Assembly (NCBI GenBank): GCA_964621595.1 | Contig: CAZUPO010000003.1 | Span: 7,150-69,522, forward strand | DNA: 62,373 bases | Direction: 5' to 3' | Source of the DNA: an uncultured Candidatus Saccharibacteria bacterium | GTDB lineage: Bacteria; Patescibacteriota; Minisyncoccia; Phycocordibacterales; UBA5272 | Shown: positions 10,474-39,452 of the stretch, one piece after another | How positions within the stretch are numbered: position 1 is the stretch's first letter | Layout: every line of letters begins with the position of its first letter | Position numbers and translations under genes: made by a program | The notes under the pieces: model-generated | Database searches by the model: none | What the model was told of the DNA's origin: nothing | What the model saw: the letters and a program-made list of their open reading frames with translations, nothing else

Positions 10474-10727
10474 AAAAATTTTTATTTATGCAAATCAGAG
10501 AGTGTTTTAATTTTTTATGATCACGACCGTAATCATTTACTCTCGATACATTAAGTATGTCATGTGTAAAATTGCATACAATACTTTTTATAAAAAAATG
10601 TGTGGATAACTTTTTTTATTTTTTAGTTAAATAAAAAATAAAAAAATAAAAATGCGTACCACATAAGCAGAGAGTGCATTACCAGCATGTGATAGAAAAA
10701 TAAAAAAAATTCTCTGCAATAGAGAAA

Positions 10728-10745
10728 GGCCGCGCGAGCGCGGCC
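10728..10745 (-). terminator. GC-rich hairpin terminator of GC-island A
   Basis: GGCCGCG-cgag-CGCGGCC 17 nt after the stop at 10762, followed on the minus strand by TTTCTCT and, ~15 nt further on, TTTTTTTTATTTTT. Confidence 0.7.
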
Positions 10746-10761
10746 TCCTTCGGACGTCCTT

Positions 10762-11319
10762 TCATCGTCCGATGTAACTTGCTGCCGAGAGGTACTCGGC
10801 AGGCCTGGCGTAGGGCACCGTGTAGGCAATGGACCCGAGCCAGACATTAGGGATCTCCTTGGAACGGGGTTCGTTCCAGATGAGACACGGGATGGACCAC
10901 TCGACACCTTCCGCTCCGTAGATGATGCAACCATCGAAGCAGACCCTGTACTGCCGGTTGTAGATCGGAGCAGTGCCATACCGCTTCATGACAGCGCGAG
11001 CGAACTCCACGCGGTGCTCCAAGCAGACGAGGAGTGCGCGTACTCCAAGGAGTGCGTATCCAGGATCCATCATGCGGATCATCCGCACCATGTCGCTTGC
11101 CATGATCATGGTCTTCCCTGGCCCCCTGGAGAAGCCGTATAGGAAGGTGATGCTGTTCTGGTTTTCGAATTCGAGTTCAGAGACCAGATTGGTCCTCGGA
11201 TCTTCCTCCCGAAACCCGGCGAACGACTCCCTCTGGCTCGGAGGAGTATCCGGATACTGCGCCCTTAGGCGCTTCCACACGGAATCATCGGATTCCGTGA
11301 GGTTGATTGCGTATGGCAT
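10762..11319 (-). CDS. Orphan 185-aa protein encoded in GC-rich island A
   Basis: ATG at 11319 is preceded by AGGAGGTG (2-nt gap). G/C-biased third positions in an otherwise AT-rich genome. No family recognised. The ORF-track start at 11379 lies in the promoter, so it is rejected. Confidence 0.6.
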   Translation of the reverse strand: MPYAINLTESDDSVWKRLRAQYPDTPPSQRESFAGFREEDPRTNLVSELEFENQNSITFLYGFSRGPGKTMIMASDMVRMIRMMDPGYALLGVRALLVCLEHRVEFARAVMKRYGTAPIYNRQYRVCFDGCIIYGAEGVEWSIPCLIWNEPRSKEIPNVWLGSIAYTVPYARPAEYLSAASYIGR

Positions 11320-11350
11320 GGCACCTCCTGAAGAGAACTGTGAAGGTTTC

Positions 11351-11379
11351 ATTATACCATAAATATTTGACTGCGTCAA
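11351..11379 (-). promoter_or_regulatory. Near-consensus sigma70-type promoter with palindrome over the -35
   Basis: Minus strand TTGACG - 17 nt - TATAAT. The -35 is embedded in TTTGAC-gca-GTCAAA. Confidence 0.6.
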
Positions 11380-11400
11380 ACTAATGAGTCGCGTACAGGA

Positions 11401-11901
11401 TTATTTATCTGAAACTGGAGTGAGTCCGTAGAGATGCTTTTCTGCAGAACAATTACAACCCTTAGAGGCTATGTACTCTTTCACAAACTCTTCCCCATAG
11501 TCATAGACAATCTCTTCCCCTTCTTTAATATTCTTTATTGCTTTTACAAATACCCTCTTCTTCTTCACATCACTCTCAGCATTCCCATCACATGAATGAT
11601 TTGCATATCGTGCGATATTCCAACGCGGCGATCCATTAATAGTATGATTGCGCGACACTTCGAAAAGATATTGGCAGTTAGTTACCTTGTCCGCTTCTTC
11701 TTTGGTAAGGATCTCACCTATATATTCAATAATAAGTTCTCCTTTCTTGATATCTTCTCCAGCGAAAAGCCCCAAGCCCGATAGTCCACGCTTTACTTTT
11801 ACTTTTTTAAAATGATGATCTGGGAGTGATTTATTATTTGGTGAAAGTTTTTTACTGATTTTTCCACCGCGCCTGAGGAGTTGTGATTGTTTTTTCAACA
11901 T
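11401..11901 (-). CDS. SET-domain protein-lysine methyltransferase
   Basis: 'GLGLFAGEDIKKGELIIEYIGE', 'ARYANHSCDGN', 'IKEGEEIVYDYG' and a post-SET Cys cluster 'GCNCSAEKH'. Start taken at ATG 11901 (MLKKQSQ). Confidence 0.8.
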   Translation of the reverse strand: MLKKQSQLLRRGGKISKKLSPNNKSLPDHHFKKVKVKRGLSGLGLFAGEDIKKGELIIEYIGEILTKEEADKVTNCQYLFEVSRNHTINGSPRWNIARYANHSCDGNAESDVKKKRVFVKAIKNIKEGEEIVYDYGEEFVKEYIASKGCNCSAEKHLYGLTPVSDK

Positions 11902-11972
11902 ATGAAATATGGTAGTATACAGATACTTATCTATAGTAAAGAATAGATACAATCCTATCATACCTATCTTCT

Positions 11973-37642: not shown

Positions 37643-37655
37643 TTTCAAGATTACC

Positions 37656-38633
37656 ATGCAAGAACAAGGTCCTGATGCTAATACAAAAGAAGAGTGGCGA
37701 GGATCTCATTACAGAGAGCGAGGACTCTTGGATATAAAAAAATTCCTAGAAGAAAGCCTGGGGACCGAGGCTCAGCAACAATTTGAAGCGGAAGCATTTT
37801 TTGGTACCATTCTTGCAACACCCAATGATCAAACTACTAACACAAGCCCATGGGGTACCGAGTATAGAAAAACACCAACCGGACTTCTTACAAAAGAAGA
37901 GGTGGCAGACTTCACTTTGTTTGCCAGACGGGCGATCAAACGAATACTAAACGCTTTTCAACATAAATATAAAGATCCCACGTGGACAAAAGATTCCATT
38001 AACGCACGTTCCTTATTCCACGACGTATCACATGCTGCTGGCATGATTGCTTCTGGCAAGTATAAGCAACAAGACAATTCTATAGTCTTACCATTTCTTC
38101 ATACCCCTCTTGGAGAAGACTTTAGTAATCGAGAATTCATGGAGGATGAACTCTACGGCATACTCTGGAATGTAATACAAATTGATAAGAAACCAGGACA
38201 ATATGTACTTAAGACTTTGCGAGAATCTAGCACTGAGTCTGAATTTATTAAAGCCTATGTAGAGGGAGTTATGAGTGCTGCTGTTGGAGCCAACAGAAAT
38301 CATATTTACAGACGCCTGGCTGCTGTGCGAAAAGATCTCTCCCCAGAAGAACTTGAGCAGGAGACTACTGCTCTAAGAAGCAAGGCCATTGAGACCGCAA
38401 AAGAGATAGAGAACAATCCACCAACAAAGATTATTGAGATACTGCACTACATATGGGAACATCGAGACAATAAACGAGTGCTGGCAGATTTATTCTTCCG
38501 TGAAGTTGGTCCATATATTGAAGAACTAAAGAAACGGGACGAATATAGTGATCGACCACTAGAAGATATTGTTGACGGTAGAGAAAGTGTGGCGGGAGGT
38601 ATAGAAGACACCCCACTACGCGAAGCGGCTTAG
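37656..38633 (+). CDS. Hypothetical protein (325 aa from ATG 37656)
   Basis: Long ORF. The TTG at 37605 would overlap thrS, so the ATG 'MQEQGPD' is preferred. No family recognised. Confidence 0.5.
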   Translation: MQEQGPDANTKEEWRGSHYRERGLLDIKKFLEESLGTEAQQQFEAEAFFGTILATPNDQTTNTSPWGTEYRKTPTGLLTKEEVADFTLFARRAIKRILNAFQHKYKDPTWTKDSINARSLFHDVSHAAGMIASGKYKQQDNSIVLPFLHTPLGEDFSNREFMEDELYGILWNVIQIDKKPGQYVLKTLRESSTESEFIKAYVEGVMSAAVGANRNHIYRRLAAVRKDLSPEELEQETTALRSKAIETAKEIENNPPTKIIEILHYIWEHRDNKRVLADLFFREVGPYIEELKKRDEYSDRPLEDIVDGRESVAGGIEDTPLREAA

Positions 38634-39142
38634 ATCGTATATTTTTTGTGCACACTTACAGGTAGTCCTGCCTGCTTTGCCTTGTCTATTGTATCTTGAG
38701 TTCCGGTACTATTATTTACCTGAAAGGCATACACATCGTCTGAAAAAGTAACTTCTTCATTATGACGAATATCATACTCTTCTTGAGTGATGTCTCCGGA
38801 ATCTTTTCGTACTTCAAAAATGGCACTTGGGTTTCGTTCTTTTATGAGGGCAAGTACGTATTCAATATCGTCGATGTCTCGATCTGTAACTGGGTCATGC
38901 TTCCAATTTTTTCTATAATCTCTAATGAAATGATCTAATCTGGCGGGAATAAAAATTCTGATCTTGGTACACTCTGGGTTAAGTTTGAGCCACTCATCCA
39001 TCGCAAAAAAGTCCACTCCCGTTGCACCTCCTGTCACCATACCATCCCCACGTTCAAAAACCTTGCGAGCGTACATTCTCACATCGTGTTCAACTTCTTT
39101 ATTCGTTAGCCTCCATGTGCCTGTAAAAATAATCCACTTCAT
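38630..39142 (-). CDS. SLOG-superfamily (DprA/LOG/YpsA-like Rossmann) protein
   Basis: 'GDGMVTGGATGVDFFAMDEW' GGAxGxD glycine loop after a beta-strand 'MKWIIFTG'. Its stop overlaps the convergent gene's stop (cTTAg). Start at ATG 39142. Confidence 0.55.
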   Translation of the reverse strand: MKWIIFTGTWRLTNKEVEHDVRMYARKVFERGDGMVTGGATGVDFFAMDEWLKLNPECTKIRIFIPARLDHFIRDYRKNWKHDPVTDRDIDDIEYVLALIKERNPSAIFEVRKDSGDITQEEYDIRHNEEVTFSDDVYAFQVNNSTGTQDTIDKAKQAGLPVSVHKKYTI

Positions 39143-39151
39143 AATGTAGCG

Positions 39152-39203
39152 CGCCCCGGTCACTACTTCGTGGACCGTTGTTCGGTCCTTTCGTGCCGGG
39201 GCG
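39152..39203 (-). other. GC-rich nested hairpin between the island-C ORF and the SLOG gene
   Basis: Outer stem CGCCCCGG/CCGGGGCG (39152-59 / 39196-203) encloses the inner hairpin GGACCG-ttgtt-CGGTCC (39172-88). No T-run follows. Confidence 0.6.
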
Positions 39204-39228
39204 TTTCCTTCGTTGTTCTGTGCGCGGA

Positions 39229-39393
39229 TCAGGGGTTCTCGTCCCCTTCCTCCGCCGGCGTCACCTCGAGGAGGTGGCGGGTACGGCAGAGCATCGCTGC
39301 CTGCACGTGCCGGTCGGGCATCGGGCGGCAGCCGCCCTCGACGGGCTTCAGGCTGCCTTTCTGCGGGGTCTGGCCAGCGGGGGTCGTGTCCAT
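39229..39393 (-). CDS. Candidate 54-aa protein in GC-island C (MDTTPAGQTPQKGSLKPVEGGCRPMPDRHVQAAMLCRTRHLLEVTPAEEGDENP)
   Basis: GGAGGA SD 5 nt upstream of ATG 39393. ~71% GC, with 49 of 54 codons ending in G/C (hand count). The three plus-strand ORFs here look like Arg/Ser-rich mirror frames. Confidence 0.45.
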   Translation of the reverse strand: MDTTPAGQTPQKGSLKPVEGGCRPMPDRHVQAAMLCRTRHLLEVTPAEEGDENP

Positions 39394-39423
39394 CTGTTTC
39401 CTCCAGAACTTGTAGGGACCACC

Positions 39424-39452
39424 ATTATACATGAAAAATTAAGAGAAGTAAA
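39424..39452 (-). promoter_or_regulatory. Possible promoter of GC-island C
   Basis: Minus strand TTTACT - 17 nt - TATAAT, ~30 nt upstream of the ATG. Confidence 0.4.

Follow-up and report, generated by a model that had tools for sequence, protein, structure and literature searches.

The stretch of 62,373 nucleotides (nt) of contig CAZUPO010000003.1 that is analyzed here, hereafter the window, is a chromosomal segment of a bacterium of the Patescibacteria, or Candidate Phyla Radiation (CPR), with a GC content of 41.7%. The closest metagenome-assembled genomes (MAGs) are labelled Paceibacterota/Nomurabacteria, and many related MAGs stand under the automatic label 'uncultured Saccharibacteria'. 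The window harbors glmS, a SET-domain gene (SET), valS, tag, an M3 peptidase gene, gyrB, a thrS-like gene, rpsB and tsf, together with five tRNAs, a 5S rRNA and the 3' end of a 23S rRNA, as detected with Rfam; it reaches that 23S end, and the 16S rRNA of the organism lies beyond it. Three short GC-rich islands, A, B and C, are embedded on the minus strand among these genes, and each of them consists of a leader with a Shine–Dalgarno (SD) sequence, a single open reading frame (ORF) with a high GC content at third codon positions (GC3) and a GC-rich hairpin. Island A is located between SET and a mini-gene for a lysine/alanine-rich (K/A) peptide, in a slot that carries a diversity-generating retroelement (DGR) in several relatives, B is located between tag and the M3 peptidase gene, and C immediately precedes a gene for a 170-aa protein. 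Their features are as follows.

Island A
11351..11379, minus strand: promoter-like site, TTGACG, 17 nt, TATAAT, with an upstream TG (11/12 matches)
11323..11329, minus strand: SD sequence AGGAGGT, 3 nt ahead of the ATG, in a leader of ~25 nt (from the sequence and an SD scan)
10762..11319, minus strand: ORF A, 185 aa, GC3 0.72, an orphan and, from searches and composition, a putative diverged gene like those for DGR variable proteins
10721..10745, minus strand: terminator-like hairpin GGCCGCGC-TCGC-GCGCGGCC followed by TTTCTCT (8-bp all-GC stem, T-rich tail)
10408..10609, minus strand: host unit downstream of A, with the DnaA-box-like TTATCCACA (10601-10609), a conserved leader and a 21-aa K/A-rich ORF (10473..10408)

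Island B
28458..28580, minus strand: 5' leader, with hairpin CCACTT/AAGTGG right after the Tag stop codon, hairpin GGCCACC/GGTGGTC (28526-28504) and SD sequence GAGGAG (28469-28464)
28341..28457, minus strand: ORF B, 38 aa (MAAKKHATETAKK...), GC3 0.85, orphan
28251..28309, minus strand: long stem GCGGGGGA/TCCCCCGC around a 43-nt A-rich loop
28185..28207, minus strand: intrinsic terminator CCGAGC-CCCGC-GCTCGG followed by TTTTCT, with the TAGAAT promoter of the M3 peptidase gene next to it

Island C
39424..39452, minus strand: host promoter that would now drive C, TTTACT, 17 nt, TATAAT (10/12 matches)
39394..39423, minus strand: leader with SD sequence GGAGG (39404-39400); the GC-rich insert starts directly after the -10 box
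39229..39393, minus strand: ORF C, 54 aa, GC3 0.89, orphan (gene callers give 67 aa from an ATG at 39432)
39149..39225, minus strand: nested 3' GC-rich hairpins (-37.3 kcal/mol, z = -3.9), which end 6 nt before the ATG (39142) of the 170-aa gene

Composition and translation signals of the islands

In a GC scan with 120-nt windows (mean GC 0.417, standard deviation 0.057, segments above 0.55), the three largest segments, 10699-11348 (maximum 0.65), 28284-28552 (0.625) and 39126-39448 (0.74), correspond to islands A, B and C. The remaining notable peaks are two only: 17903-18050, a scar beside a tRNA-Arg gene, and 31776-31936, which was considered as a fourth island and rejected, being the Gly-rich C-terminal tail (GGGGRSGGSSFGGFGGGSSGGGGASGSW) of a host TPM-domain gene. 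ORF A fills 558 of the ~650 nt of its island. The GC content of the first, second and third codon positions is 0.54/0.46/0.72 in ORF A, 0.56/0.44/0.85 in ORF B and 0.73/0.53/0.89 in ORF C, whereas host GC3 is 0.36 +/- 0.03, with a maximum of 0.43 among 33 long host ORFs. This codon periodicity indicates a coding origin of the three ORFs: the second position is the lowest in all of them, 3-periodicity reaches p ~1e-4 to 1e-3 in ORFs B and C (chi-square calculated by hand on codon-position counts), and the minus strand is favoured because GC1 exceeds GC2 on that strand.

The translation signals set the islands apart from their host even more sharply. All three ORFs are preceded by a correctly spaced SD sequence, AGGAGGT in A, AGGAG (within GAGGAG) in B and GGAGG in C, well placed in leaders of 25-100 nt. 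An SD match of at least 5 nt is found in 3/3 island ORFs versus 0/53 host ORFs at their listed starts (Fisher p ~4e-5), among them rpsB and tsf; with every in-frame start within the first 50 codons taken into account, such a match is seen in 6/53 host ORFs. Many host genes, again including rpsB and tsf, display a TATAAT-like box that ends 6-12 nt before the ATG, from which their mRNAs often appear to be leaderless or near-leaderless. In a published survey, only 48% of Parcubacteria 16S rRNAs had a detectable anti-SD motif (PMC9297842), and the SD-poor host fits the Parcubacteria subgroup reported to be without this 16S motif. The rplKA region, in which uL1 would serve as a proxy for anti-SD loss, is not in the part of the window that was scanned.

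The islands have this organization in common, and no sequence, repeats or ends were found to be shared among them in the comparison within the window; the base composition of B and C differs from that of A and also between B and C. The hexamer AGTTCT, which occurs in the leaders of A, C and some of the variable-protein genes described below, was rejected as a shared signal, as the window contains 69 copies of it. An initial reading of the window from its letters alone (the sequence-only reading) had already proposed GC-rich islands at these three places, and its boundaries match. It was also right about the GC3 far above that of host genes, the minus-strand position close to the upstream stop codon (the flanking signals begin 17-22 nt past it) and the GC-rich hairpins (the all-GC stem of A, the terminator and long stem of B, the very stable structure of C), and neither a recombinase, among the ORFs scanned in a window that is not exhaustively annotated, nor shared repeats or similarity between islands were seen. 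The strong SD of each island had been claimed too, and the contrast with the host is stronger than was claimed. The promoter that each island was said to bring exists in A; in C it is that of the host gene, and in B the promoter scan found no promoter-like site.

The three ORFs are orphans among ~15 billion proteins. For ORF A, a word-indexed search and a full phmmer run against 1.84 billion representatives retrieved A itself only, and ORFs B and C, searched for as one concatenated query and by exact look-up of clusters, likewise retrieved only themselves; ORF B shows a weak low-complexity likeness to the K/A-rich mini-proteins of the clade (E 0.004 by tblastx against a small database). The three ORFs have no match in Pfam, PHROGs, NCBIfam or PADLOC, and in phage, plasmid and viral-contig collections the islands remained unmatched except for a 35-nt chance hit. 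Rfam 15 at gathering score, applied to the whole window, detected only the tRNAs, the 5S and the 23S end, and at E <= 10 on each island it gave sub-threshold chance hits only, so that known structured RNAs (RNase P, tmRNA, SRP, 6S, riboswitches) were rejected as an identity for the islands; GC-rich peaks elsewhere in relatives are not Rfam families either. Since no ORF has a homologue, nothing points to a donor, not even to an organism that may carry the CPR cell. The origin from such an organism that the sequence-only reading had envisaged thus finds no backing, and neither does a known anti-defence or addiction function, for which PADLOC, PHROGs, Pfam and NCBIfam are all empty.

Island sites in independent assemblies and in relatives

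For island B with both its flanking genes, 100% identity is seen in six contigs, which come from four JGI samples and two Logan (SRA) runs, and part of it is covered at 99.6-99.7% by two shorter ENA contigs. Island C is 100% identical in eight contigs, and a ninth has one mismatch, and island A is found with SET, valS and glmS in an ENA assembly contig at 99.7% identity (L001; L-numbers are labels of the related loci and contigs that were compared). The island junctions fall within continuous host sequence. In one JGI contig (L233, 2100-2260, equivalent to window 39244), an AT-rich (~32% GC) ORF of 484 aa is fused in frame to the last five codons of ORF C, and from the fusion onward the hairpin of C and the 170-aa gene follow at 100% identity; the contig is either chimerically assembled or a genuine variant that has only the right-hand part of island C in common with the window.

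Empty sites are found in relatives for the three islands, in L003 and L008 for A, in L082-L085 for B and in L150 for C, which makes A, B and C additions with respect to the nearest genomes at hand. Their composition, codon style and translation signals are foreign as well, and on both counts the sequence-only reading is supported. The valS/SET pair is conserved in relatives, and in L003 and L008 it is followed by the SET terminator, the K/A-rich mini-gene with its leader, and glmS, with no island. In the window, the promoter-like site of A begins 22 nt past the SET stop codon and the SET terminator is gone, while the host unit at 10408..10609, with the mini-gene terminator (10377-10344) just outside it, forms the far side of the slot that a DGR occupies in relatives. 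A metagenome scan with SET gave, as its nearest match, a sequence of 83% identity on a 1-kb contig, and no homologue of A.

The mini-gene itself (21-46 aa; in the window, MAAKKKAAKKKTAKKKSAKRA) comes after SET in 10/10 related loci scanned (window 10344-10609; L003 6640-6960; L008 6740-7060). Its leader is conserved as GAGAGTA...GAT[TC]A..GGTCGTGATCA, and TTATCCACA is the only perfect DnaA-box-like site of the window, shared with L003 and L008.

Tag and the M3 peptidase gene are only 0-100 nt apart in L082-L085, and the TAGAAT promoter of the latter, which is conserved, lies downstream of B in the window. Island B was thus inserted past the Tag stop codon and ahead of the M3 peptidase promoter. 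Its leader of ~100 nt contains a hairpin, and because the promoter scan found no promoter and the island has a terminator of its own, B is probably co-transcribed with Tag by read-through and ends at that terminator. In L091 (830-1010) and L093 (1900-1960), the same slot contains tiny ORFs (MKKVFTFVFTA, MANVFAFK, MYAVASFK), hydrophobic and similar to each other and followed by hairpins, which look like leader peptides.

The site of C was traced through gyrB synteny, the search with the bestrophin-like gene having returned zero relatives. In L150, the stop codon of the bestrophin-like gene is followed by TTGATT, 17 nt, TATAAT, 9 nt and the ATG of the homologue of the 170-aa gene, and in the window the insert starts right after the equivalent TATAAT and ends 3 nt before that ATG. 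Because the promoter of the downstream gene is at the same place in L150, C did not bring it. The insertion thus separates the -10 box of this host gene from its start codon. C would be transcribed from the host promoter, and a gene that was near-leaderless would become a second cistron, preceded by an upstream ORF of 54 aa and a very stable hairpin. The 170-aa gene has no SD sequence and no longer a 5'-terminal AUG, so that its expression would have to depend on reinitiation, RNA processing or an unseen promoter, and the main effect of C is probably on the expression of this gene.

Two other features of the window were noted. The last 17 nt of the tRNA-Arg gene (TTCCCGCCGAGGGCACA) are exactly duplicated 167 nt downstream (17925-17941 and 18092-18108), and the copies enclose a perfect inverted repeat of 20 nt (18045-18064 / 18074-18093) together with a stretch rich in GC, so that the region 17903-18165 has the look of an att-type scar, left by an integrative element of which almost everything has since been lost. 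A tRNA-like gene located between the 5S and the 3' end of the 23S (61990-62065; Rfam tRNA, 56 bits) has a shortened anticodon-loop region, and ARAGORN assigned no anticodon to it.

Retroelements of relatives in the slot of island A

Strongly GC3-rich ORFs are rare in ~2 Mb of related loci, and several of them adjoin SET. One of these GC-rich ORFs, in L018 (208 aa, GC3 0.77), has 345 matches at E <= 0.01, of which those with names are hypothetical proteins, mostly of Patescibacteria. In 3/3 homologues whose context was looked up, bAvd and RVT_1 adjoin the gene, and in these loci the 3' end of the gene is repeated downstream with 84-89% identity, the differences lying mostly at adenines of the downstream copy, the template repeat (TR). 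Mismatch between the TR and the variable region (VR) that is specific to adenines is the signature of a DGR (Wu et al., PMC5758913). The 3' repeat with its adenine differences and the bAvd and RVT_1 neighbours therefore identify genes of the L018 type as DGR variable-protein genes.

The slot between SET and the K/A mini-gene carries such elements in different states of completeness. In L024 it contains the variable-protein gene, avd and the reverse transcriptase (RT) gene, in L035 avd and RT, with no variable-protein gene detected, in L022 and L262 the variable-protein gene and an RT remnant, and in L018 the variable-protein gene alone; it is empty in L003 and L008, and in the window it contains island A. 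The DGR loci examined comprise L018 6660-7620, L022 6760-7800, L024 6880-7850 and L239 3740-5120. Their variable-protein genes have a GC3 of 0.60-0.78, with C-ending codons, and most have an AGGAG-type SD sequence, whereas in the two AT-rich CPR DGR loci examined, L239 and L243, avd and RT have a host-like, AT-rich composition, and no SD sequence precedes avd, RT or those host genes that were checked. Variable-protein genes with only ~57% identity in protein remain GC3-rich (0.65-0.78). Their flanks are 88-95% identical between genomes whose valS is 50%, 69% and 77% identical to that of the window, and among CPR DGR loci these shared flanks enclose different ORFs. Several variable-protein genes are preceded by a long leader hairpin (GTCATAGCGAAAAG...CTCGCTATGAC), which recurs in a distant DGR of Harrisonbacteria. 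Within the decayed DGR region of L022, between the variable-protein gene and the RT remnant, a partial match to the Rfam RT-7 RNA, a reverse-transcriptase-associated motif, was noted at 7675-7729 (26.6 bits, E 6e-4; gathering score 116.8).

Island A, between SET and the K/A mini-gene, occupies the exact position of the variable-protein gene and agrees with it in orientation and, roughly, in size (185 aa versus 181-218 aa). Its A, C, G and T fractions, 0.217/0.289/0.285/0.210, compare with 0.222-0.226/0.280-0.298/0.280-0.288/0.196-0.211 in the genes of L018, L022, L024 and L239, which it also nearly matches in its third-position profile, as A and the variable-protein genes are both rich in C at that position; those of L020, L240 and L243 are less GC-rich than these closest matches. 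The AGGAG-type SD sequence is common to A and most of the variable-protein genes. At the protein level, hhalign of A with a 66-member profile of the family gives E 0.015 and a probability of 3%, a score that is attained by 2/300 shuffles (p~0.01); a hidden Markov model of the family scores A at 5.0, rank 1/201 sequences, and Smith-Waterman alignment with the L239 variable protein gives z = 5.2. Two collinear motifs are discernible, EEDPRTNLVSELEF in A for EQDERSLALTEVDL in the family, and FDGCII..G....CLIW......WLGS for FDGTVL..G....CLYW......WLGS. The family forms of both, EQDERSLALTEVDL and FDGT.L..G....L.W......WL, are among its most conserved motifs, and the latter runs into the VR region.

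From slot, composition, translation signal and these motifs, it is proposed, at somewhat less than even odds, that ORF A is a stranded, diverged gene for a DGR target, that is, a variable, ligand-binding protein. Its own promoter would drive expression, and with RT, avd and TR absent from the window it would no longer be diversified. The GC shift of A would then likely be a trait of the family and not a sign of recent transfer. The possibility that had been set against the sequence-only reading, conserved genes whose GC content reflects constraint, thus applies in part to A, which is probably of the DGR-target kind that is found at this locus across the clade and is GC-rich everywhere. The reading of the islands as one class is not supported, given that they have neither sequence similarity nor ends in common, differ in base composition, and only A resembles the DGR variable-protein genes. 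The explanation preferred here, to which a probability of roughly one half is given as a whole, with A as a DGR target included, is that A, B and C are separate lineage-specific insertions of gene size and not copies of one element, and that each is a translation unit of foreign style, consisting of SD leader, GC3-rich ORF and GC-rich hairpin, placed in promoter-proximal intergenic DNA.

Several observations weigh against this explanation, most of them concerning A. Its similarity to the variable-protein family is statistically insecure, with a BLASTP E of 1.2 and the hhalign probability of 3%; it scores no better than shuffled sequences against the variable proteins of L022/L262 and L020, and unremarkably against those of L024 and L243. 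Island A has neither the conserved leader hairpin (~125-160 nt) nor the 3' flank of the variable-protein genes of relatives. A tblastn search of the 62-kb window with RT and Avd from three CPR DGRs found neither, while the same search found both in L020, L024 and L035, and the RT remnant in L022. No TR was found in the window, nor a second copy of any part of A, and an exact search for the constant-like 3' segment of A in species-representative genomes (a collection without this genome) gave zero matches. The two amino-acid variants of A, P to T and C to W, both in one ENA contig, are in the middle of the protein and do not form a VR-like block, and the C-terminal region is invariant in all sampled sequences, with no targeted hypervariation among strains. 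The single-sequence AlphaFold model of A, with a predicted local distance difference test (pLDDT) score of 37, is unusable; the family model reaches a pLDDT of 91, with weak matches to C-type lectins of the PDB (E >= 0.25). As for the islands in general, the nearest comparison genomes have only ~60-87% protein identity, so that the insertions could be old, and the searches gave no positive pointer to the source or function of B and C. A chance ORF of 67 codons in a GC-rich insert of 70% GC has an estimated likelihood of ~27% (own estimate), an objection that is tempered for B and C because their codon periodicity argues for a coding origin.

Other explanations, significance and known systems

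According to a first alternative, which is considered unlikely, the islands are neutral debris, foreign GC-rich DNA gained by natural competence or left by decayed mobile elements and fixed where it was tolerated, with vestigial, poorly translated ORFs. This would account for the orphan status of the three ORFs, in sampled contigs that are devoid of the sequence variation that would reveal selection, and it agrees with SD-less host genes, with the lack of a detectable anti-SD motif in about half of Parcubacteria, and with the scar that an integrative element seems to have left at tRNA-Arg elsewhere in the window. However, random GC-rich fragments should be mostly gene-internal, and the islands are complete units from leader and SD sequence to stop codon and hairpin; an open frame of 185 codons has a chance of ~1e-3 at 57% GC (own estimate), and a donor gene should have relatives among the 15 billion proteins, of which zero were found.

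It is a little more doubtful still that B and C are primarily RNA elements, C being a regulatory leader of the 170-aa gene and B a structured small RNA, with ORFs that are incidental or encode a leader peptide. The 3' part of C folds with -37.3 kcal/mol (z = -3.9) and the 3' and 5' parts of B have z = -2.35 and z = -2.0, C is situated between a promoter and a start codon, and the ORFs are tiny (38 and 54 aa). Nevertheless, no Rfam family matches B or C even at E <= 10, zero homologues are at hand for a covariation test, and the GC3 of 0.85/0.89 against a GC2 of 0.44/0.53, along with the well-spaced SD sequences, are features of coding sequence.

A single mechanism has also been considered, in which the islands are DNA copies of complete foreign transcripts, from the 5' untranslated region to the terminator stem, inserted by an RT-dependent process in a clade rich in DGR RTs. 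Each island spans roughly the distance from a transcript start to a terminal hairpin, C starts directly after a host -10 box without a promoter of its own, B holds a 43-nt A-rich tract, and DGR RTs are found at the A slot in relatives. This scheme is nonetheless very improbable: the window contains no RT, the islands lack target-site duplications and shared ends, the A-rich tract of B lies inside the island between the arms of an inverted repeat, and A has its own promoter-like site. Moreover, DGR cDNA finds its target, the VR, through homology, and DGR RTs are not known to capture genes. Finally, an assembly chimera or contamination with GC-rich reads, which inserts of high GC in an AT-rich MAG classically call to mind and of which the odd junction of L233 inside island C might be an instance, can be practically dismissed, and with it the misassembly that would have undone the sequence-only reading, because A, B and C recur with their flanks in independent assemblies and their junctions lie inside continuous host sequence.

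CPR genomes are tiny and streamlined, and little is known about their routes of gene gain. The window displays three clean gene-sized additions with translation signals unlike those of the host, and A marks a locus that recurrently carries a DGR in the clade. Three new points stand out as the most useful: SD-led islands contrast with a host whose genes lack SD sequences, C is placed exactly between a promoter and a start codon, and A is linked to a recurrent DGR locus with GC3-rich, SD-led targets across CPR genomes. On a wider and speculative view, with odds well against it, the SD-less, largely leaderless CPR of the Paceibacteria type would hold a distinct pool of GC3-rich, SD-led gene units with leaders, of which the DGR variable-protein genes are the recognisable members and A-C orphan ones, and this pool would retain a foreign composition and foreign translation signals even among distant lineages and be exchanged between genomes. 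Long-distance retention is suggested because variable-protein genes of ~57% identity are still GC3-rich beside AT-rich, SD-less RT and avd, and exchange because flanks are 88-95% identical between genera with housekeeping proteins of only 50-70% identity. If this were true, there would be a separate regime of expression and translation, or a dedicated and possibly RNA-mediated transfer route, for the surface or interaction genes of these episymbionts. Were the pattern seen in the window general, GC3 combined with an SD sequence would be a simple genome-wide flag for accessory and host-interaction genes, including stranded DGR targets missed by homology. The window also raises the question of how, or whether, ribosomes possibly without an anti-SD translate SD-led genes. 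The position of C, with a promoter on one side and a near-leaderless start codon on the other, offers a natural experiment for leaderless translation.

Among known systems, the DGR variable-protein genes of CPR bacteria resemble A in slot, orientation, size, base composition, C-ending codons, AGGAG-type SD sequence and the GC-rich hairpin after the stop codon, and in the two weak collinear motifs just before and inside the VR region of the family. A therefore looks like a DGR target in locus and composition; it differs in a window without TR, avd and RT, in having no significant homology, long leader hairpin or 3' flank, and in the absence of VR-type variation. B and C share none of these likenesses. 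Leaders with an upstream ORF or leader peptide are comparable to C, where a small ORF and then a strong hairpin lie between a promoter and the next start codon; unlike them, C is absent from relatives and its ORF has 54 aa and is GC3-rich, and neither a terminator/antiterminator pairing nor a regulatory codon run was identified in it. Integron cassettes share with C, and arguably with B, the lack of a promoter, a short SD leader, a small and often orphan ORF and a 3' imperfect inverted repeat. They were rejected as an identity because no RYYYAAC/GTTRRRY cores were found by eye, no IntI or attI was seen among the ORFs scanned (the window not being exhaustively annotated) and no array exists; the hairpin of A, of 20 nt, is too short for an attC, and the units are 10-17 kb apart. 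In anatomy, the islands come nearest to the 'morons' of phages (PMC3594210), which are transcription units added between conserved genes. Unlike morons, they are located not in a prophage but in a cellular chromosome, among glmS, SET, valS, tag, the M3 peptidase gene, gyrB and thrS-like genes, and C depends on the promoter of a host gene and has no T-tract terminator, while B has a terminator but no detectable promoter. As in morons, additional DNA of deviant GC content, with a small ORF of unknown or accessory function, separates genes that adjoin each other in relatives, and A has both the promoter and the terminator.

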